In this document: in pieces, positions 7,352 to 18,167 of the stretch
Layout: the number at the start of each line of letters is the position of its first letter
How positions within the stretch are numbered: position 1 is the first letter of the stretch
IMG/VR virus record: IMGVR_UViG_2671180353_000009
Location: 1 to 18,167 of that record
Reading direction: 5' to 3' (one strand)
Source of the DNA: a virus
Taxonomy: Duplodnaviria > Heunggongvirae > Uroviricota > Caudoviricetes
Length of the DNA stretch: 18,167 bases
Position numbers and translations under genes: made by a program
Notes under the pieces: generated by a model
Seen by the model: the letters and a program-made list of their open reading frames with translations, nothing else
Databases searched by the model: none
What the model was told of the DNA's origin: nothing

Positions 7352-10300
7352 ATGGCAGTACGGATTTCAGGTGTACTGAAAGATGGCGCAGGTAAGCCGA
7401 TACAAAACTGCACCATTCAGCTAAAGGCCAGGCGCAACAGCACCACGGTGGTGGTGAACACAGTGGCCTCAGAAAACCCGGATGAAGCCGGGCGTTACAC
7501 AATGGACGTCGAGTATGGTCAGTACAGCGTCAGTCTGTTGGTGGAGGGATTCCCGCCGTCACACGCCGGGATTATCACCGTATATGAGGACTCAAAGCCG
7601 GGCACACTGAATGATTTCCTCGGTGCAATGACGGAGGATGATGCCCGTCCGGAGGCACTGCGCCGTTTTGAGCTGATGGTGGAAGAGGTGGCGCGTAACG
7701 CGTCCGTGGTGGCACAGAACACGGCAGCCGCGAAGAAGTCAGCCAGTGATGCCAGCACATCAGCCCGTGAGGCGGCAACCCATGCGACTGATGCTGCAGG
7801 CTCAGCACGCGCAGCCAGCACATCAGCCGGGCAGGCCGCGACGTCGGCTCAGTCAGCGTCTTCCAGCGCAGGAACGGCATCAACAAAGGCCACTGAAGCA
7901 TCAAAAAGTGCTGCCGCTGCAGAGTCCTCAAAGAGCGCGGCAGCTACCAGTGCCGGTGCGGCGAAAAAGTCAGAAACGAATGCGGCAGCGTCACAACAAT
8001 CAGCAGCCACTTCTGCATCCACCGCGACCACGAAAGCGTCAGAAGCTGCCACCTCAGCCCGGGATGCGGCGGCCTCAAAAGAGGCAGCGAAATCATCAGA
8101 AACGAACGCATCATCAAGCGCCAGTAGTGCCGCTTCCTCGGCAACGGCGGCAGGAAATTCCGCGAAGGCGGCAAAAACGTCCGAGACGAACGCCAGGTCT
8201 TCTGAGACGGCAGCGGGACAGAGCGCCTCAGCTGCGGCAGGCTCAAAAACAGCGGCTGCGTCGTCTGCCAGTGCCGCGTCAACAAGTGCCGGGCAGGCCT
8301 CAGCCAGTGCTAGCGCCGCCGTAAAATCGGCAGAAAGCGCTGCATTGTCCGCTTCAACAGCCACAACGAAGGCTGGCGAAGCCGCTGAACAGGCCAGCGC
8401 AGCAGCGAGGTCTGCATCCGCAGCGAAGACATCCGAAACGAACGCGAAAGCCTCGGAAACCAGTGCAGAATCCTCAAAAATGGCAGCTGCATCGTCCGCC
8501 AGTTCGGCGGCGTCATCGGCATCATCTGCGTCTGCTTCAAAAGATGAGGCGAGCAGACAGGCATCAGCAGCGAAAGGCAGCGCCACGACAGCATCCACGA
8601 AGGCGACAGAGGCAGCTGGAAGTGCGACGGCGGCAGCACAGAGCAAAAGTACGGCGGAATCCGCGGCAACGCGCGCCGAGACAGCAGCAAAACGGGCAGA
8701 GGATATTGCATCCGCCGTGGCGCTGGAGGATGCGAGCACGACGAAAAAGGGGATAGTACAGCTCAGCAGTGCAACAAACAGCACCAGTGAAAAGCTGGCG
8801 GCAACGCCAAAGGCAGTTAAAACTGTTAAAGATAGTTCAGTTCAAAAAACTGGCGACACAATGGGAGGGCAGTTAAAAATCAGCACGATAAATGCTCTTC
8901 GAATATTCAACCAAGCCTTTGGCCTTATTTTTAGGCGTTCCGAAGATCATCTTCATCTTATTCCGACTAATGAAGGGGAGGGGGAAAATGGAGACATCGG
9001 TTCATTAAGACCATTCTCTATAAACTTAAGATCAGGGTTGGTGTCCATCGGTAATGGACTAAAAGTTGGTGGTAGTGTTACTGGTAATTTGACCGGAAAC
9101 GCAGATACTGCGACCAAGATCAAGACAGCACGTAAGATTGGGGGCGTGGCATTTGATGGATCGGCAGATATCAACTTGCCTGGAGTCAACGCTACCGGTA
9201 ATCAAAACACTACAGGTAATGCTGCGACCGCCACGAAACTTCAGGCAGCCAGAACGATTAACGGTGTGTCATTTGATGGTAGTGCAAATATCACATTGAC
9301 CCCTTCAAATATTGGGGCATTGGCATTAACTGGAGGGACTCTTTCAGGTGGTTTAACTGCTGCTGGTGAGGTTATTTCAAGGTCAGCAAATGGTCTGCGT
9401 ATTGCCTATGGCAACTATGGATTCTTTATCCGAAATGATGGATCAAACACATATTTTATGTTGACAGATTCGGGTAACAGTCTTGGTACGTACAATAGCT
9501 TAAGGCCGTTTATAATTAGTAACCATACTGGCAATGTTACAATTGCAACTAAATTAAACGCGAGTGGTGGTATCACTGGATCTTTATCGGGTAATGCAAG
9601 CACAGCAACCAAATTGCAAACTGCAAGGACAATTAACGGCGTAAAATTTGACGGCTCGGCAAATATTGAAGCGTTTCCGCCAGGTGTTCCGCTGCCGTGG
9701 CCATCAGATACACCACCTGCAGGTTATGCAATCATGCAGGGGCAGACGTTTGATAAGGCAGCATATCCGAAACTGGCTATTGCCTATCCTTCAGGTGTTA
9801 TTCCAGATATGCGCGGCTGGACAATCAAGGGCAAACCCGCCAGTGGCCGGGCCGTATTGTCTCAGGAACAGGACGGCATTAAATCGCACACCCACAGCGC
9901 CAGCGCATCCAGTACGGATTTAGGGACGAAAACCACATCGTCGTTTGATTACGGCACTAAATCCACGAATAACACCGGGGCGCATACGCACAGTCTGAGT
10001 GGCTCTACGGGGTCTGCCGGTGTTCATACTCATGGTAATGGTATTCGTTGGCCAGGAGGCGGCGGTTCTGCGTTAGCATTTTATGATGGCGGTGGGTTCA
10101 CTTATGTCCAGAATTCACAGTATCAAGTAAGCCCGGAGACTTCTTCCTATAGATCGTATTATCAACGTATTCAGACACAGTCAGCAGGTGCTCATACCCA
10201 CTCGCTGTCTGGTACTGCAGCAAGTTCTGGCGCACATGCACATACTGTAGGTATTGGTGCGCATACGCACTCCGTTGCGATTGGTTCACATGGACACACC

Positions 10301-10378
10301 ATCACCGTTAACGCTGCGGGTAACGCGGAAAACACCGTCAAAAACATCGCATTTAACTATATTGTGAGGCTTGCATAA
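7352..10378 (+). CDS. stf: Side tail fiber protein Stf (mosaic)
   Basis: Lambda Stf-like N-terminus [38 protein letters not shown]..., Ala/Ser/Thr-rich shaft, central module of three ~40-aa GNAxTATKLQxARTINGVxFDGSANI repeats, and lambda Stf-like C-terminus with H-x-H motifs ending [14 protein letters not shown]. The track ORF begins at 7208 because of an in-frame upstream Met; I prefer 7352. Confidence 0.9.
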
Positions 10379-10962
10379 TGGCATTCAGAATGAGTGAACA
10401 AGCACGGACCATAAAAATTTATAATCTGCTGGCCGGAACTAATGAATTTATTGGTGAAGGTGACGCATATATTCCGCCTCATACAGGTCTGCCAGCAAAC
10501 AGTACCGATATTGCACCACCAGATATTCCTGCTGGCTTTGTGGCTGTTTTCAACAGTGATGAGGCATCGTGGCATCTCGTTGAAGACCATCGGGGTAAAA
10601 CGGTTTATGACGTAGCGTCAGGGGACGAGTTATTTATTTCTGAACTCGGTCCGTTACCGGAAAATGTTACCTGGTTATCGCCGGAAGGGGAGTTTCAGAA
10701 GTGGAACGGCACAGCCTGGGTGAAGGATACGGAAGCAGAAAAACTGTTCCGGATCCGGGAGGCGGAAGAAACAAAAAACAACCTGATGCAGGTAGCCAGT
10801 GAGCATATTGCGCCGCTTCAGGATGCTGCAGATCTGGAAATTGCAACGGAGGAAGAAACCTCATTGCTGGAAGCCTGGAAAAAGTATCGGGTGTTGCTGA
10901 ACCGTGTTGATACATCAACTGCACCGGATATTGAGTGGCCTGCTGTCCCTGTTATGGAGTAA
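10378..10962 (+). CDS. tfa: Tail fiber assembly protein Tfa
   Basis: 194 aa, [54 protein letters not shown]... near-identical to lambda Tfa as recalled; start overlaps the stf stop (TAATG). Confidence 0.92.
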
Positions 10963-11499
10963 TCGTTTTGTGATATGCCGCAGACACGTCGTATGCAGAA
11001 ACGTGCTGCGGCTGGCTGGTGAACTTTCAATAGTGCGAGTATTGAATGATTTCCAGCTGTTATCGATTTTATGTGTTTTTTGCATGAGGGGATTTCCAAC
11101 ACCTCCCACCGACCATCTAAGATTTTATGCCACTGTCCCTAGGACTGCTATGTACTAGGAGCGGATGTTAAACTCAGACTCGTTTCAGCTATATTGCGTT
11201 TTGAATAATATTCCATCATAATAACTCTTTGAAAAATGTGATCTTTTCATTTATAACACTGATGACTTGCTTATCTCATTGGGATATCGGAGGAGAATAC
11301 TTAACTATGACAAGCCCGATTATTATGACACTGGCTATATTATATAGATTGATATTAAAATGTAGGGTTAGGTTCTTGCCAAGGTGTCAAGATTTACAGA
11401 TAGGTTTAAAACCATATAAATATGTTTTACGGTGAGATACAATACATATTGTAAGGCATAAACGCTTGGTAAAATTTTAATTATTGGAAGAAGCTAATC

Positions 11500-14400
11500 A
11501 TGGAACCCATATCAATTACAGTGGCAACTTATGTAGCAACTAAACTTATTGATCAATTCATCTCTCAAGAAGGATATGGTTGTATTAAGAAAGCATTATT
11601 CCCCCAAAAAAGATATGTGGATAGATTATATCAACTAATTGAAGAGACGGCAATTGAGTTTGAAGAAACATATCCAGTAGAAAGTGGAGCAATACCATTT
11701 TATCATTCCGAACCATTGTTTGAGATGTTGAATGAGCACATCTTTTTTAAAGAGTTCCCTGACAAAGAGATATTATTAGACAAGTTCAAAGAATATCCAA
11801 GTATCACTCCCCCAACTCAACAACAACTCAGCCTTTTTTATGAGATGTTATCATTAAAAATCAATAATTGTTCGAAGTTAAAAAAGCTACATATCGAAGA
11901 AACGTATAAAGAAAAAATATTCGATATTAATGAAGAGCTCATTCAAGTCAAACTTATTTTACGGTCTATAGATGAGAAACTAACTTTTCACTTAAGTGAT
12001 GATTGGTTAAATGAAAAAAATAGTCAAGCAATAGCTGACTTGGGAGGTCGATACACACCCGAACTCAACGTAAAGCTAGAAATAGCAGAGATATTTGATG
12101 GCCTCGGTAGAACTAATGATTTTTCTAAAATATTTTATTCGCATATAGATAGTTTTCTGGTCGCTGGAAAGAAATTACATAGTTGCGATGTAATTTCCTC
12201 AGAATTATTTGAAATAAACCAGTCCTTAAAAGAAATTTCTGATATATATCAGGAGATTAATTTTTCTAAATTAGATGAAATCCCTATAAATAAATTTAAT
12301 AACTATGTTTCTAGCTGCCAGACAGCTATTGGCGGAGCGGTATCAATATTGTGGGAACTCCGAGAAAAGTCAGAGCAAGTAGGTGAAACCAAGCATTACA
12401 GTGATAAGTATTCATCTACTCTGCGAATGCTTCGGGAATTTGACTATGCGTGCAATGAATTACGTATATTCATTAATTCAACAACAGTGAAGTTGGCTAA
12501 CAACCCATTCTTACTTCTCGAAGGAAAAGCAGGAATTGGTAAGTCTCATTTACTGGCTGATGTGATTAAAAATCGAATTACTTCTGGGTATCCTTCACTA
12601 CTCATACTAGGGCAACAACTTACTTCAGATGAATCTCCATGGTCACAAATCTTCAAGAGATTACAGCTTAAAATCACTTCTCGTGAATTCCTAGAAAAAC
12701 TGAATTTATATGGCAAAAAAACAGGAAAAAGAGTCTTAGTTTTTATTGATGCTATTAATGAAGGTAATGGAAATAAATTCTGGAATGACAATATTAACAG
12801 TTTTGTCGATGAAATCAGATGCTTTGAATGGCTTGGTCTGATAATGTCAGTCAGAACAACATATAGAAATGTAACAATTTCACATGAGAATGTTGTGCGA
12901 AATAATTTTGAAATTCATGAACATATTGGATTCCAGAACGTTGAGTTGGATGCGGTTAGTCTATTTTATGATTATTACAATATTGAGAGGCCTTCATCTC
13001 CTAACCTTAATCCAGAGTTTAAAAATCCTCTATTTCTTAAGTTATTGTGTGAAGGCATTAAGAAAAATGGTTTAACCAAAGTGCCTGTTGGATTTAATGG
13101 GATTTCAAATATTTTTAACTTTTTAGTGGAAGGGGTAAATAAATCATTAGCATCGCCAAAAAAATATGCATTCGATCCCAGTTTTCCTCTTGTTAAAGAT
13201 GCTCTCAATGAAATCATAAAATTCAAATTAGAGATTGGTCGTAATAGTATTTCACTTAAAGATGCTCACTCAGTGGTTCAATCTGTAGTTAATGATTATG
13301 TTGCTGATAAAACCTTCCTCAGCGCCTTGATTGACGAAGGATTATTGACTAAAGGCATAGTGAGAAATGATGATAATTCTACTGAGGAAGTAGTTTATGT
13401 GGCTTTTGAAAGGTTTGATGATCATTTAACTGTTAATTTTTTATTAAATGATGTTGAAAATATCGAAAGTGAATTTAAGCCTGATGGTCGTCTGAAAAAA
13501 TATTTTCATGATGAATGTGATTTTTATATAAAATCGGGAATAGTAGAGGCTTTGTCTATTCAATTGCCAGAAAGGTATGAAAAAGAGCTTTATGAATTTC
13601 TGCCGGAGTTCAGCAATAATCTTAAATTACTAGAAGCCTTTATTGATAGCTTGATATGGCGAGATATTAAGGCTATTGATTTCGAAAAAATTAGACCTTT
13701 CATCAATGAACATGTTTTTAAATTTAAAGATAGTTTTGATCATTTCCTCGAGGCAGTGATCTCTATTTCAGGTTTAGTTGGCCATCCCTTTAATGCTAAT
13801 TTCTTGCATGATTGGCTAAAAGATTATTCTTTGGCAAATCGAGATTCGTTTTGGACTACAGAACTTAAATATAAATATAGTGAAGACTCAGCATTTAGGC
13901 ATCTAATCGATTGGGCATGGGCCAGAACAGATAAAAGCTTTGTTTCGGATGAGTCAATCGAGCTAGTTGCAACTAGTTTATGCTGGTTTTTAACTTCTAG
14001 TAACCGAGAACTTCGAGATTGCTCAACTAAGGCTTTAGTGAGTTTACTCGAGCCAAGAATTCCTGTATTGAGAAAAATAATTGATAAGTTTTATGGTGTA
14101 AATGATCCTTACGTTTGGGAAAGAATATTTGCAGTTGCATTAGGCTGTACATTGCGAACTGATAATATTAAAGAACTAAAATATTTAGCCGAAACTGTTT
14201 ACCAAAAGGTATTTTGTTCTAAGTATGTGTATCCAAATATATTACTTAGAGATTATGCTAGAGAGATTATTGAATTTGCTAATCATCTTGGATTGGAACT
14301 TGAAAGCATTGAATTATCCAAGACTAGACCACCCTACAACAGCATTTGGCCTGACAAGATTCCTTCAAAAGAGGAACTAGAGTCCCTTTATGATAAAGAA

Positions 14401-15954
14401 CCTTATCGGGAACTCTGGAGCTCTATTATGGAAGATGGTGACTTTTCACGATATACTATTGGAACAAATTATAATCATTCTGATTGGTCTGGTTGCAAGT
14501 TTAATGAAACCCCTGTTGACCGTAAGCAAGTTTTTAAAACTTTCAAATGTAAACTAACTGATCAACAAAAAGACTTGTATGATGCCACAGATCCTTTCAT
14601 TTATGATGATAAATGCGAAGGAATTAAATTTGGTCGTGTGGTCGGTAGAAAAGCACAGGAAGAAATAAAGGCGAGCAAGAAATTATTTAAGAATTCATTG
14701 TCATACGATCTGTTAAGTGAGTTTGAAAATGAAATAGAGCCATACCTGGATCATAATAATAATCTGCTGGAAACTGATAAACACTTTGATCTTCGACTAG
14801 CTCAACAATTTATATTCAATCGTGTTATAGAGCTTGGTTGGGATCCGGAGAAGCATGGTAATTTTGACCAACAAATAGGAACTGGACGTGGACGTAGAGA
14901 GGCATTCCAAGAACGGATTGGTAAAAAATACCAATGGATTGCTTATTATGAATACATGGCAAGGCTAGCCGATAATTTTACTCGTTTTGAAGGTTATGGT
15001 GACGAACGAAAGGAAAATCCATACCAAGGGCCATGGGAGCCTTACGTAAGAGATATAGATCCCACTATCTTACTTAAAGAAACTGGAACGAAAAAAATAA
15101 GCAATAAAGAAATGTGGTGGCTTAATGATGAAGTGTTTGATTGGACTTGCTCTAATGAAGACTGGGTTAAAAGTTCTACTACTATAACTAATTCATATGC
15201 TTTTATTGAAGTTAAAGATGATAATGGTGATGAATGGATAGTATTAGAAAGTTATCCATCATGGAAAGAACCAAAAATTATTGGAAACGATGATTGGGGG
15301 CACCCACGAAAAGAGGTTTGGTATCAGATCAGAAGTTATATCGTTAAAGTTGAAGAATTTGAAAATTTTAGATGTTGGGCAATAGCTCAAGACTTTATGG
15401 GCAGGTGGATGCCGGAATGTACTGATAGATACCAATTATTTAATAGGGAGTACTATTGGTCCGAAGCATTTAAGTCTTTTAAATCAGATTATTATAGTGG
15501 ATCTGACTGGACTTCGGTAACAGACCGGGAGTCTGGAGCTAAGATAGCTGATGTTAGTGTCACTTCGATTAATTATTTGTGGGAAGAGGAGTTCGACAAA
15601 TCAAAAATAGAAACTTTGAATTTTTTGAAGCCTAGTAACTTAATCTTTGAAAAGATGGGATTAAAAAGTGGGGAAGTAGAGGGTAGCTTCAATGATGAAA
15701 ATGGAACTATGGTTTGCTTTGCAGCTGAAGCTGTATATGCTTCAAAGCCGCATCTACTTGTTAAAAAAGAACCATTTTTAACAATGTTAAGGGACAATGG
15801 TTTTGAAATCGTTTGGACATTATTAGGTGAAAAGGGCGTTATAGGGGGCTCACTCATATCAAGTCATCATTATGGTCGACAGGAGTTTAGTGGAGCATTT
15901 TATTATGAAGACAGTCAGCTAACAGGAAGTCATAAAACTAGCTTTACGAGATAA
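11500..15954 (+). CDS. Large (1484-aa) P-loop NTPase of unknown function; STAND/NACHT-like Walker A and B motifs flanked by uncharacterised N-terminal (~340 aa) and C-terminal (~1000 aa) regions; candidate single-gene defense protein or phage moron
   Basis: Uninterrupted 4455-nt ORF with GGAAGAAG RBS-like sequence ~6 nt upstream. Walker A EGKAGIGKSHLL near residue ~345 and Walker B-like hhhhD VLVFIDAINEG about 70 residues later. Strongly AT-rich, Lys/Asn/Ile/Phe/Glu-rich composition unlike the flanking phage genes. Confidence 0.8.
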   Translation: MEPISITVATYVATKLIDQFISQEGYGCIKKALFPQKRYVDRLYQLIEETAIEFEETYPVESGAIPFYHSEPLFEMLNEHIFFKEFPDKEILLDKFKEYPSITPPTQQQLSLFYEMLSLKINNCSKLKKLHIEETYKEKIFDINEELIQVKLILRSIDEKLTFHLSDDWLNEKNSQAIADLGGRYTPELNVKLEIAEIFDGLGRTNDFSKIFYSHIDSFLVAGKKLHSCDVISSELFEINQSLKEISDIYQEINFSKLDEIPINKFNNYVSSCQTAIGGAVSILWELREKSEQVGETKHYSDKYSSTLRMLREFDYACNELRIFINSTTVKLANNPFLLLEGKAGIGKSHLLADVIKNRITSGYPSLLILGQQLTSDESPWSQIFKRLQLKITSREFLEKLNLYGKKTGKRVLVFIDAINEGNGNKFWNDNINSFVDEIRCFEWLGLIMSVRTTYRNVTISHENVVRNNFEIHEHIGFQNVELDAVSLFYDYYNIERPSSPNLNPEFKNPLFLKLLCEGIKKNGLTKVPVGFNGISNIFNFLVEGVNKSLASPKKYAFDPSFPLVKDALNEIIKFKLEIGRNSISLKDAHSVVQSVVNDYVADKTFLSALIDEGLLTKGIVRNDDNSTEEVVYVAFERFDDHLTVNFLLNDVENIESEFKPDGRLKKYFHDECDFYIKSGIVEALSIQLPERYEKELYEFLPEFSNNLKLLEAFIDSLIWRDIKAIDFEKIRPFINEHVFKFKDSFDHFLEAVISISGLVGHPFNANFLHDWLKDYSLANRDSFWTTELKYKYSEDSAFRHLIDWAWARTDKSFVSDESIELVATSLCWFLTSSNRELRDCSTKALVSLLEPRIPVLRKIIDKFYGVNDPYVWERIFAVALGCTLRTDNIKELKYLAETVYQKVFCSKYVYPNILLRDYAREIIEFANHLGLELESIELSKTRPPYNSIWPDKIPSKEELESLYDKEPYRELWSSIMEDGDFSRYTIGTNYNHSDWSGCKFNETPVDRKQVFKTFKCKLTDQQKDLYDATDPFIYDDKCEGIKFGRVVGRKAQEEIKASKKLFKNSLSYDLLSEFENEIEPYLDHNNNLLETDKHFDLRLAQQFIFNRVIELGWDPEKHGNFDQQIGTGRGRREAFQERIGKKYQWIAYYEYMARLADNFTRFEGYGDERKENPYQGPWEPYVRDIDPTILLKETGTKKISNKEMWWLNDEVFDWTCSNEDWVKSSTTITNSYAFIEVKDDNGDEWIVLESYPSWKEPKIIGNDDWGHPRKEVWYQIRSYIVKVEEFENFRCWAIAQDFMGRWMPECTDRYQLFNREYYWSEAFKSFKSDYYSGSDWTSVTDRESGAKIADVSVTSINYLWEEEFDKSKIETLNFLKPSNLIFEKMGLKSGEVEGSFNDENGTMVCFAAEAVYASKPHLLVKKEPFLTMLRDNGFEIVWTLLGEKGVIGGSLISSHHYGRQEFSGAFYYEDSQLTGSHKTSFTR

Positions 15955-16062
15955 AAATGAATCTCAGAGCTGAATATATAAGTAGTATTAGAAACCGGGT
16001 TATACTTAAGAAATCAATCTTAAGTGTGGCAGTCGAATGGTAGCTAATATGCTAGCGGCGCT

Positions 16063-16092
16063 AATGCCTGTTTGTTGCTCATAACAGGCATT
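16063..16092. other. Perfect 10-bp inverted repeat (AATGCCTGTT-n10-AACAGGCATT) about 110 bp downstream of the large ORF; possible terminator-like stem-loop or protein-binding site
   Basis: Read directly; no strong T-run follows. Confidence 0.4.
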
Positions 16093-16337
16093 CACTTTAG
16101 TTATGGCAGAAAAGTATACATGCTGGGTTGGGAAAGTGTGAAAGAAAGGAAGATTGCTGCGCCGTTTGTCGTCACGTTTATCTTCATTGGCTATGCAAGT
16201 CGTAATAAAAGGTGGGACAAAACTGAGACACATAAAGCCTCGCAATGGCTTGCAAGGCTTTACATGTTTTGATGTAGTGGGACGTGTGAGCGCAGTGTTG
16301 ATGGGGTAATGCTTTGAATTAGAAGCGGATTCTTATG

Positions 16338-16383
16338 ATTCGTAATGCGAAGGTCGTAGGTTCGACTCCTATTATCGGCACCA
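16338..16383 (+). other. tRNA-Thr 3' fragment (anticodon loop through CCA); probable attR core of the prophage
   Basis: ATTCGTAATGCGAAGGTCGTAGGTTCGACTCCTATTATCGGCACCA shows a T-arm (GGTTCGACTCC), acceptor 3' strand and CCA, and matches my recollection of the 3' half of E. coli thrW (anticodon CGU). No matching 5' half lies upstream, so it is not a complete tRNA gene. Confidence 0.55.
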
Positions 16384-16988
16384 TTAAGAAAATTAATAAC
16401 TTAGCTTAACTTCTCTAAGAAATTGTATCTTCTGTTATCACTTACAAACGCCTATACGTTGTTATGGGCTTTGGTAGTGTAACACGTATGGGCGAGTAGT
16501 TCCCAGGCTCAACCTCGTAACAAGTTCCTTTGAAGCTGGAAGACGTGCCACCGTCTCTAAACCTTCTACCAAAACTCTTAGCAAGATGTTCCACACCTGG
16601 CGCGGTGTCCAATGATGCTACACGTCGTGAGACGTTGCAGAGGATAAACAGGCTAAATGATGGGAAGAGTTTTAAGTGCAATAGTGGATTAAAGCCCACC
16701 TCTTCAAAACCTAACTTGATCGGGAAAGAATCAAGCTCTAGCACGGTTTCGTCCACCGGAGTACAACGGGTGCCTGATAAGAGAAGAACTGCTAAGACTT
16801 CATAGCTTTTGTGAAAAAGCCCTTTTTAGTGGATACGCCTACGGCGCTTATTTTTTGGTATAACCATCAAAGGCGCTTTATGGCTCCTATTGTCTTGAAA
16901 ATGTATCTTTACTTGTATTGTGTTTTATGCGTAGTCTCCCTGTGTAGTATGTAACTTGTTAATTTTCATATGAATACAGAGGCACACG

Positions 16989-17147
16989 ATGAAAAACATT
17001 GCAGCAATCAAACGTAATAACCGCAAGATTCACGCTCGTAAGTTCCTGTCTACGCCAGAAGGAAAAGCCTGGCTAGAGCGTAAACAGAGAGAGAACGAAG
17101 AAAGAAAACTCCTTAGTGAGTTGAAATGGCTTAGAGAGGATTTCTGA
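16989..17147 (+). CDS. Small basic hypothetical protein (52 aa; MKNIAAIKRNNRKIHARKFLSTPEGKAWLERKQRENEERKLLSELKWLREDF)
   Basis: ORF below the track's length cutoff, found by reading; AGAGG-like RBS about 8 nt upstream; composition is helical and basic. No homology recognised. Confidence 0.3.
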   Translation: MKNIAAIKRNNRKIHARKFLSTPEGKAWLERKQRENEERKLLSELKWLREDF

Positions 17148-17434
17148 AAATCTCCAGAACGCAACAGGACGCATTCTAACGCTGTTTTCATTACTCGGTA
17201 TAGGGATAGGTGATGTGTGTTTAATGCGTCTGTGCGCTTGTTTTGTGCCTTATTTTGCATTTTCATAATGCGGAAGAGAACACGGAAAACCTTAAAATTA
17301 ATTATTGGGGTATTTAAGGCTATTTTCAGGTGATTTAAGGGTATTAAACTTGATTTAATTGATTAAAATATAAACAGATAATTATGTATCTTATTGATTT
17401 ATAAGGTTGTTTTTAAGTAAAGGTAAATAAAAAA

Positions 17435-17463
17435 TAAATAGCCATAAATAGCTATAAATACAT
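17435..17463. repeat. Three tandem ~10-bp units (ATAAATAGCC / ATAAATAGCT / ATAAATACA) in an AT-rich region; iteron-like or regulator-binding repeats
   Basis: Read directly; further phased repeats (ATTTAAGG, twice, 21 bp apart) at ~17313 and ~17334. Confidence 0.4.
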
Positions 17464-17487
17464 CTTAATACCTATATCCCTTCCCTT

Positions 17488-17823
17488 ATGGCTAGATTGC
17501 GAGAGGTGCTTAACGCGATTTTCAGCGCCCCCCGATCTGGAAAATCCAGAATCCCCAAATATCAGCAAGGAATTTTCTTGCGTAATCAACATCGTTTTTA
17601 CCTATTAAATCATTACACAGAAAGCCTTTCTGTAATGTCTCTCACTAAACTTTCACTAAACACGAGAATGATCGGTTTTATGTCGGATCAGATGCTAGAA
17701 ACAGCACCACGTCTCACAAGGGCTGTAAGCGATGAAACCAGTGTTTATGCGGGTGCAGGTCAAAATATAGGCCAAAATCCATTTAACATAATAAATGTTA
17801 TATGTGCTAAGGAACACATATAA
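17488..17823 (+). CDS. Hypothetical protein (111 aa), weak coding evidence
   Basis: Track ORF downstream of the AT-rich repeat region; no recognisable motifs. Confidence 0.25.
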   Translation: MARLREVLNAIFSAPRSGKSRIPKYQQGIFLRNQHRFYLLNHYTESLSVMSLTKLSLNTRMIGFMSDQMLETAPRLTRAVSDETSVYAGAGQNIGQNPFNIINVICAKEHI

Positions 17824-18095
17824 CGCCTTGAATTGATGTATCAGTGGAAAAGTGATGGATTTTTTACGTAGGAGCACGAAAGGGCTTCTATTGACTTTTG
17901 TGTGCTATGAAATATAATTAAAGTTTTTTGTTTTTATTGTGTGATGTGGTGGGTTACACAGGGGAATAGATTAAATGGTGTTCTGTTTATACAGGTTTAT
18001 TTGTTAGATCAACAATTTGGCATTTCTAAACAGATGTTTGAACGTTGCCAAATGTCTTGACAACACAAGAAAAGGGCTTGCTATGCCAGGCATTA

Positions 18096-18138
18096 TGAGG
18101 TGTACTGGCAATAGCGGACACTACCATTTGTTCTTTTT
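18096..18138. repeat. 43-bp direct repeat, copy 2
   Basis: Matches 7209..7251; the flanks differ (TTAAGCAGCC follows here, GACGGACGC follows copy 1). Confidence 0.7.
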
Positions 18139-18167
18139 TTAAGCAGCCATCTGATGATATTTTTCCC

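Follow-up and report, generated by a model that had tools for sequence, protein, structure and literature searches.

The window, that is, the whole stretch of DNA analysed (18,167 nucleotides), is the right part of a lambda-like prophage together with the host DNA that follows it. A tail fibre assembly gene, tfa (10378..10962, + strand), is recognised in it by the Pfam family Caudo_TAP (151 bits) and carries the RefSeq name 'tail fiber assembly protein' in the matching genomes; it is the final late gene ahead of the cargo slot. From the tfa stop at 10962, a leader of 537 bp runs up to a large open reading frame on the same strand (11500-15954), and another 383 bp separate the end of this gene from a 46-nt piece of a tRNA gene, in agreement with the ~540-bp leader and ~380-bp trailer given in an initial annotation of this DNA. 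That annotation had regarded the interval 11050-16383 (GC 0.348 as a whole) as an AT-rich island of horizontally acquired cargo, closed on the right by a tRNA-Thr fragment marking the prophage end.

The compositional break on which this proposal rested is real. Shortly past the tfa stop the GC content falls from 0.54 (0.539 over positions 1-10962, the tail genes, computed on the window) to 0.34, with maximum-likelihood change points at 11165 and 16024. The leader (11170-11499), the large gene and the trailer (15955-16056) have GC contents of 0.309, 0.341 and 0.343, respectively, and codon usage confirms the break, with a GC3 of 0.265 in the large gene versus 0.44-0.67 in nine tail genes. The cassette is compositionally foreign, AT-rich DNA. 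Its borders, on the other hand, differ from those first proposed. The left edge lies at ~11170 rather than at 11050, and the DNA just before it (10978..11169, either strand) is a conserved prophage-end element with a GC content of 0.46, which forms the left border of a variable slot and whose right end coincides with the change point at 11165. This element recurs with 83-88% identity in two other loci, L005 (where it immediately follows pinE and precedes Septu cargo) and L003 (inside a restriction-modification cargo region), and ~100 bp of it are present in 2737 of the 5426 E. coli genomes. On the right, the AT-rich composition holds until ~16056 but not up to the tRNA piece, since GC goes back up to 0.44 in the conserved attP arm (16057-16337). 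Judged by these homologies, the true cargo spans about 11170-16056, for which the initial reading stands, and the last 330 bp (16057-16385) are attP arm and core of the phage, wrongly counted in as cargo.

The large gene (11500..15954, + strand) is avs2, encoding an AVAST type 2 STAND NTPase of 1484 aa. It had previously been described as a large NTPase gene, with no further identity, and this identity is established here by PADLOC, NCBIfam and a PDB sequence search (not by Pfam, which alone gives weak nSTAND6, NB-ARC and NACHT matches at residues 325-427, all under cutoff). PADLOC assigns it to Avs2 with 1751 bits, and the NCBIfam equivalog NF041813 matches residues 178-1476 with 1689 bits, where the cutoff is 1000, and is covered over the full model. 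The protein aligns end to end with chain A of PDB entry 9O4E, the cryo-EM structure of E. coli Avs2 (3436 bits), with two differences (T361A and D484E) within the 957 residues displayed. In its layout, an N-terminal effector (~1-177) is followed by the NTPase with its Walker A motif GKAGIGKS (residues 342-349, nt 12523-12546, including K348), a TPR sensor and a C-terminal sensor; additionally, a VLVFIDAINE motif starts at residue 412. The nine published interface residues, which contact the terminase and the bridging ATP (list from PMC13601566), are all kept (D981, T1128, R1130, R1132, W1266, E1362, E1364, E1444 and E1462). On the strength of this sequence identity, the gene product is Avs2, a sensor of phage terminase whose anti-phage role has been characterised before. 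Terminase-triggered toxicity and phage defence have been shown by experiment for the near-identical EcAvs2 (PMC13601566).

Within E. coli, avs2 occurs in 87 of 5426 complete genomes from varied hosts and sources, and its copies are 99.6-100% identical among the 30 records listed; the copy in strain ATCC 43886 differs from that of the window at five positions. Orthologues with 70-80% amino-acid identity are found in Serpens, Aeromonas, Cycloclasticus, Shewanella and Colwellia, where they have a GC content near 0.35 irrespective of that of their flanks. A search of the phage collection, by DNA or by protein, found this avs2 in no sequenced phage.

The leader (11170..11499, + strand) is specific to Avs2, having no match in related loci without avs2. 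Within it are a GGAAG ribosome-binding site and, at 11467-11475, the sequence TGgTAAAAT, a putative promoter of the extended -10 type; orthologues from six genera have a TTAAAAT/TTAAGAT motif in common, ~25 nt ahead of the ATG. Since a consensus scanner, applied to the + strand of the leader, gave no canonical sigma-70 site, we infer the avs2 promoter from these motifs. The trailer (15955..16056, + strand), which is also Avs2-specific and forms the right end of the cargo, is partly conserved beside the Serpens and Aeromonas orthologues, and homology with thrW prophages lacking avs2 starts only at 16057-16075.

Beyond the trailer lies the P arm of the attP site of a thrW-integrating module (16057..16337, either strand), which is part of the phage core: it shares 90-94% identity with the arms that adjoin unrelated cargo in the loci L003, L004 and L005, and the segment 16213-16387 is 96.6% identical to the attP region of phage SfIV. 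At the outer edge of this arm, the perfect 10-bp inverted repeat that had been noted earlier was found as described (16063..16092, + strand), with its halves AATGCCTGTT (16063-16072) and AACAGGCATT (16083-16092) separated by a 10-nt loop. The repeat is diverged but present in L003 and L005, in the latter with one compensatory C-G to T-A change. We considered it as a terminator of avs2 and rejected it, both because its fold (-17.9 kcal/mol, z = -1.1) has no U tract and no greater stability than shuffled sequence, and because it is an element of the conserved arm and not of the cassette. Closer to the core, on the integrase-sense strand (16228..16267, - strand), there is a strong hairpin followed by a U run, with an 18-bp stem and a folding energy of -25.7 kcal/mol (z = -5.9; none of 200 shuffles folds as well). 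This hairpin is almost unchanged in four aligned arms and is placed like the lambda tI/sib element, so that, by analogy of position only, it may be called sib/tI-like. In Rfam, the leader, the trailer and the arm have no match, the sole match of the window being IS009, inside tfa.

The architecture of the att site is established by a three-way alignment with the attL of ATCC 43886 and the attB of APEC O1. As the initial annotation had stated, the tRNA piece at 16338-16383 derives from a tRNA-Thr gene: by alignment to annotated thrW (tRNA-Thr, anticodon CGU) it corresponds to the last 46 nt of this gene, with the CGT anticodon included. ARAGORN found no complete tRNA anywhere in the window, as expected from the presence of a 46-nt fragment only. 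Identity to attL goes two bases further, to 16385, which defines a shared core of 48 bp (16338..16385, + strand). The DNA that follows (16386..18167, either strand) is host flank, of which at least 80% is carried by 268 genomes, and it follows an intact thrW where the prophage is absent. In APEC O1, in particular, thrW is unoccupied and the sequence from 16386 onwards starts ~2 bp after the tRNA-Thr gene, with no avs2 in between. The fragment marks the prophage right end, as had been claimed, and, judged by alignment, 16338-16385 is the attR of a tRNA-integrating prophage. Because the window does not extend to the left end, that end is known only from a relative, the prophage of ATCC 43886, which is 99.3% identical. 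There, the intact tRNA-Thr gene and integrase that the initial annotation suggested looking for at the opposite end are present, next to proA; the integrase shares 99% identity with its counterpart in phage SfIV, and the prophage also carries a full lambda-like gene set, stf, tfa and avs2.

Cargo content at this position varies among phages with a shared flanking core, as is the case for moron (accessory) slots. The P arm is present, with at least 80% coverage, in 1018 of the 5426 complete E. coli genomes, avs2 being found in 87 of these 5426 and other cargo elsewhere. Eight other kinds of cargo were sampled at the same arm, among which are a type II restriction-modification system, Septu with PDC-S15, a type IV restriction enzyme, CBASS, a HEPN gene with ISEcp1-CTX-M-15, and GIY-YIG/AraC remnants; in phage SfIV the place is taken by gtrABC. 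The same cassette as in the window is also found in Escherichia sp. E1V33, with 96% identity over 11006-16204, where it adjoins a lambda-type attP arm and the core GCTTTTTTATACTAA; this is direct support for the analogy with the lambda b region drawn in the initial annotation. Together with the compositional break, the differing cargo of related prophages bears out the view that the cassette was horizontally acquired. We consider it highly probable that the interval is an accessory (moron) slot of a lambda-like thrW prophage, occupied here by a single-gene Avs2 system. A literature search, which was not exhaustive, found no description of the tfa-attP slot of thrW lambdoid prophages as a hotspot.

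The alternative that survives best concerns function rather than origin, namely that avs2 is silent, its AT-rich DNA being repressed (for example by H-NS), or that the prophage is a defective remnant, so that no defence is provided here. The GC content of 0.31-0.34 and the leader, with no canonical promoter detected, agree with silence, and the rearranged tail region (a duplicated J C-terminus with lom, and a truncated stf fragment) agrees with a remnant. We nevertheless think this unlikely, given a reading frame intact over 1484 codons in which every tested functional residue is kept, the near-identity of the listed copies in a gene spread over 87 genomes from varied hosts and sources, and a -10-like motif that accompanies the gene across genera.

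It is considerably less probable that the cassette inserted in the prophage as a mobile element in its own right, be it a transposon, a unit mobilised by an IS, or a small integrative element. The compositional boundaries are indeed sharp, and insertion sequences visit the slot elsewhere (ISEcp1 in locus L010, IS1 in L009), with an IS66-family element also listed under the match in F5505-C1. Nevertheless, the interval contains no transposase open reading frame and the cassette no transposase or integrase, no terminal inverted or flanking direct repeats are found around 11170-16056, and the segment shared with E1V33 reaches into the conserved flanks on both sides (11006 to 16204), which fits homologous exchange rather than transposition. 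Finally, even though thrW is a known integration hotspot and the DNA right of the core differs between strains, it is barely credible that avs2 belongs to a chromosomal defence island next to thrW alongside which the prophage merely landed, since the gene, seen from the core, is on the phage side, beyond the arm shared with SfIV, is missing from the empty site (where thrW is followed by the sequence from 16386), is joined to tfa and to the arm in 87 of 87 genomes, none of which lacks prophage genes to its left, and is also found within a lambda-att prophage of another Escherichia species.

Returning to the accessory slot of a thrW prophage, the following course of events may be proposed. The slot, with tfa as the last late gene on one side and the attP arm on the other, corresponds exactly in position to the lambda b region. 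The cassette (~11170-16056) has a proximal promoter-like motif of its own, and was probably inserted and swapped by recombination in the conserved flanking sequences, with the ~190-bp prophage-end element as the left border and the attP arm as the right one. Avs2 would be made constitutively in the lysogen. When another tailed phage infects, its TPR and C-terminal sensors would bind the ATPase domain of the large terminase and the bridging ATP, the STAND NTPase would then drive tetramerisation, and the N-terminal effector would kill or arrest the cell ahead of maturation of the invader, a mechanism published for the almost identical EcAvs2 (PMC13601566). In this way the lysogen population, and hence the prophage, would be protected.

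These results place EcAvs2, a structurally characterised sensor, in a natural setting, the accessory slot of a lambda-like thrW prophage widely distributed among E. coli of human, animal and environmental origin, and this setting explains the spread of avs2. They also raise the question of how a phage needing its own large terminase coexists with a killer triggered by terminase, given that the prophage carrying avs2 has its own gpA-type large terminase, which in ATCC 43886 is WP_000934130.1. More speculatively, and with some doubt on our side, lambdoid phages may have, in their tfa-attP interval, a site dedicated to the exchange of defence cassettes and, jointly, a specific self-tolerance mechanism may exist. 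If so, the ~190-bp element and the attP arm with its edge hairpin would bracket the exchange site, whole immune genes would move by homologous recombination between phages with different integration sites, such as thrW and att-lambda, and either the gpA-type terminase of the carrier would be invisible to Avs2 or the sensor would be off during the phage's own lytic growth.

Several known systems can be compared with this locus. In lambda, the b region, an accessory segment dispensable for growth, extends from the tail fibre genes to attP, with sib/tI next to attP. The window resembles it in having a strong integrase-sense hairpin just inside the arm and, unlike lambda, has an integration module of the SfIV type that targets thrW. 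SfIV, a serotype-converting phage of Shigella, carries gtrA-gtrB-gtrIV at the same position, between the tail fibre assembly genes and attP; the two differ in their cargo (O-antigen modification versus an intracellular immune sensor) and also in their tail modules. As for the protein, EcAvs2 (PDB 9O4E; Evans et al. 2026, PMC13601566) has 1484 aa like the Avs2 of the window and shares with it K348, the terminase and bridging-ATP contacts and the uncommon N-terminal effector, the two being separated by few substitutions; the available text of that paper holds no discussion of the genomic setting of the gene. KpAvs2 from Klebsiella pneumoniae (Béchon et al. 2024, PMC11564622) is a member of this family too, with the same tripartite plan and terminase trigger, but has an N-terminal Mrr nuclease where the Avs2 of the window has a non-nuclease effector, and shares its operon with two associated genes (one for a radical SAM protein), whereas the avs2 of the window stands alone. 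At the level of genome organisation, a 2022 study (PMC9122126) described how interchangeable defence systems occupy one constant site in the genome of a temperate phage, and the same principle emerges from the work of Hochhauser et al. 2023 (PMC10121019) on prophage-borne defence in the E. coli pan-genome, in phage lineages and at positions unlike those of the window. Measured against these systems, the island is textbook prophage-borne defence cargo, of a kind already well described, rather than a new kind of system.

Our results support the reading of the AT-rich interval between tfa and the tRNA-Thr fragment, proposed in the initial annotation, as horizontally acquired prophage cargo. In the sliding-window profile the tail genes have a GC content of 0.47-0.62, falling to 0.31-0.37 from ~11.0 kb to ~16.1 kb, with likelihood change points at 11165 and 16024. 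By segment, GC is 0.539 in 1-10962, 0.309 in 11170-11499, 0.341 in the avs2 ORF and 0.343 in 15955-16056, and third-position GC is 0.265 in this large ORF versus 0.44-0.67 across nine tail genes, which confirms the compositional switch described after tfa. The ORF map places tfa at 10378-10962 and avs2 (1484 codons) at 11500-15954, hence a leader of 537 bp and a trailer of 383 bp, close to the earlier estimates (~540 and ~380 bp). The perfect 10-bp inverted repeat noted in the trailer lies at 16063-16072 / 16083-16092, and the tRNA-Thr piece at 16338-16383 is the final 46 nt of thrW, including the CGT anticodon (ARAGORN detected no complete tRNA in the window).

The right end of the prophage was established by comparison with strain ATCC 43886, in which a region 99.3% identical to window 10301-16500 belongs to a 46-kb arrangement of proA, tRNA-Thr, integrase, early genes, Q, lysis genes and a gpA-type terminase, followed by portal, capsid, tail genes, J, lom, stf, tfa and avs2. 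The intact tRNA-Thr and the integrase sought at the other prophage end are therefore both found there, the integrase sharing 99% identity with its counterpart in Shigella phage SfIV. This same phage encodes a gpA-type large terminase and the broad terminase sensor Avs2. A three-way alignment of the ATCC 43886 attL, the window and the thrW locus of APEC O1, which holds no prophage at thrW, defined a 48-bp core (16338-16385) common to attL and attR, with phage DNA to its left in the window and, to its right, the sequence that follows intact thrW in APEC O1. Based on the shared core, the two flanks and the empty site, the tRNA fragment is attR and marks the prophage right end, as first suggested.

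The host-side flank (16386-18167) is AT-rich too (GC 0.38) and contains a 52-aa ORF (16989-17147), annotated as hypothetical in APEC O1. In that strain the region leads into a cluster with a major capsid protein gene ~6.8 kb from thrW, which may represent another mobile element in tandem at this site. The ATCC 43886 prophage (locus L001) also encodes, on the opposite strand at 12289-13740 and outside the window, a 483-aa "ATP-dependent nuclease" (AAA_15 + AAA_21) between the Q antiterminator and the lysis genes, which is likely a second defence moron.

The island had been drawn as reaching the tRNA fragment. The AT-rich cargo does extend to ~16056, but the DNA from 16057 to the core (GC 0.438 in 16057-16337) is conserved: thrW prophages without avs2 match the window from 16057-16075 to the core at 90-94% identity, and phage SfIV matches 16213-16387 at 96.6%. 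The conserved DNA is the attP P arm and includes a strong hairpin with a U run after it (16267-16228, minus strand, -25.7 kcal/mol, z = -5.9), almost unchanged among the aligned P arms and lying on the strand that reads the integrase in the circular phage; by position, it would be analogous to lambda tI/sib. The 10-bp inverted repeat lies at the outer edge of the P arm, with a diverged form in two prophages lacking avs2, and was rejected as an avs2 terminator (no U tract, z = -1.1 versus shuffled sequences). The P arm of Escherichia sp. E1V33 carries an insertion of consecutive GGGGAT repeats (locus L013, ~10622-10657), with just one GGGTTGGG at the corresponding position of the window.

On the left, the point at which homology to other tfa regions ends varies between genomes (10943, 11018, 11044, 11077 or 11108). 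A separate element (10978-11169) recurs elsewhere at 83-88% identity, adjoining pinE and the Septu cargo in 81EVA and lying inside the restriction-modification cargo region in 210221272, and roughly one in two E. coli genomes contains its first ~100 bp. The element opens with an imperfect hairpin (GCCGCAGACACG...CGTGCTGCGGC), and RefSeq at times labels it a "capsid protein" or "DinI-like" fragment. From the limit of this element and the start of the P arm, the cassette proper covers ~4.9 kb (~11170-16056), with neither direct nor inverted repeats at its borders and no transposase in its ORF map.

The tail region shows rearrangements of its own. The C-terminal part of J and lom are duplicated in the window (ATCC 43886 has one J-lom unit only), with a 300-nt direct repeat at 97% identity (3458-3757 and 4954-5253), followed by a 241-aa ORF (5013-5738) with J tail-tip and C-terminal receptor-binding domains and by a second complete Ail/Lom gene (5806-6405). 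Upstream of the full stf (7208-10378) lie a truncated N-terminal tail fibre fragment (122 aa, 6427-6795) and a small HTH ORF (6882-7211); a 63-nt repeat at 92% identity (6453-6515 and 7336-7398) marks the two stf starts, and the arrangement looks like a recombination scar in the tail fibre region. The Rfam family IS009 matches at full length wholly within the tfa coding sequence (10721-10919, 225 bits, gathering score 117), and its model appears to have been built on prophage tfa sequence.

Full-length Avs2 relatives with the same effector were found in several genera, with amino-acid identities of 96% (Escherichia sp. E1V33), 80% (Serpens), 78% (Aeromonas and Cycloclasticus), 75% (Shewanella) and 70% (Colwellia). 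Their genes have a GC of 0.35-0.37 in every case, even with flanks at 0.50-0.62 (loci L013-L018), which points to a gene that spread very recently or one whose composition is under constraint. The E1V33 DNA matches the window from 11006 to 16204 and then continues into a lambda-type arm and core, GCTTTTTTATACTAA, which puts the cassette in the true lambda b-region position of a phage whose integration module differs and bears out the parallel drawn earlier with that region. Cassette exchange through recombination in shared flanks fits these data. The leader yielded no canonical sigma-70 promoter; a TTAAAAT/TTAAGAT motif ~25 nt before the ATG is common to orthologues of six genera and, in its extended -10 form in the window (TGgTAAAAT), is the putative avs2 promoter.

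PADLOC calls the large gene Avs2 (1751 bits), and the NCBIfam equivalog NF041813 matches residues 178-1476 (1689 bits, cutoff 1000). All 1484 residues align with PDB 9O4E chain A ("AVAST type 2 anti-phage system protein Avs2", 3436 bits), with at least two substitutions. That entry is the cryo-EM structure of EcAvs2 with the PhiV-1 large terminase, in which EcAvs2 and a bridging ATP engage the terminase ATPase domain, the assembly is a flat C4 tetramer and output passes through an N-terminal effector that resembles amyloid signalling motifs over its first 15 residues (PMC13601566). The window protein retains the Walker A lysine K348 and the contact residues reported there (D981, T1128, R1130, R1132, W1266, E1362, E1364, E1444 and E1462). 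Avs2 is already characterised to atomic structure.

Of the 5426 complete E. coli genomes, 1018 contain the P arm (coverage of at least 80%) and 87 contain avs2 (RefSeq annotation), and sampled loci with the P arm and without avs2 carry differing cargo, as anticipated for related prophages: a cytosine methyltransferase and type II endonuclease downstream of a homologous stfR-tfa (210221272), Septu PtuA/PtuB with a PDC-S15 FRG-domain protein (81EVA), a DUF262 type IV methyl-directed restriction enzyme (KMi006), a CBASS cyclase with a 2TM effector (ESY003), a HEPN protein with ISEcp1-blaCTX-M-15 (Ecol_224), GIY-YIG and AraC remnants (O157:H7 ATCC 43888), a 280-aa hypothetical protein (ECOR29), hypothetical proteins (an ST536 mussel isolate) and gtrA-gtrB-gtrIV (phage SfIV). 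In Ecol_224, ISEcp1-blaCTX-M-15 (locus L010, 3923-6752) adjoins the attP arm in the same slot, which therefore also gathers antibiotic resistance genes. The avs2 gene is accessory, in a slot rich in defence systems. Interchangeable defence systems at fixed prophage positions are well documented (PMC9122126, PMC10121019), and the slot carrying Avs2 is a feature of this already known kind.
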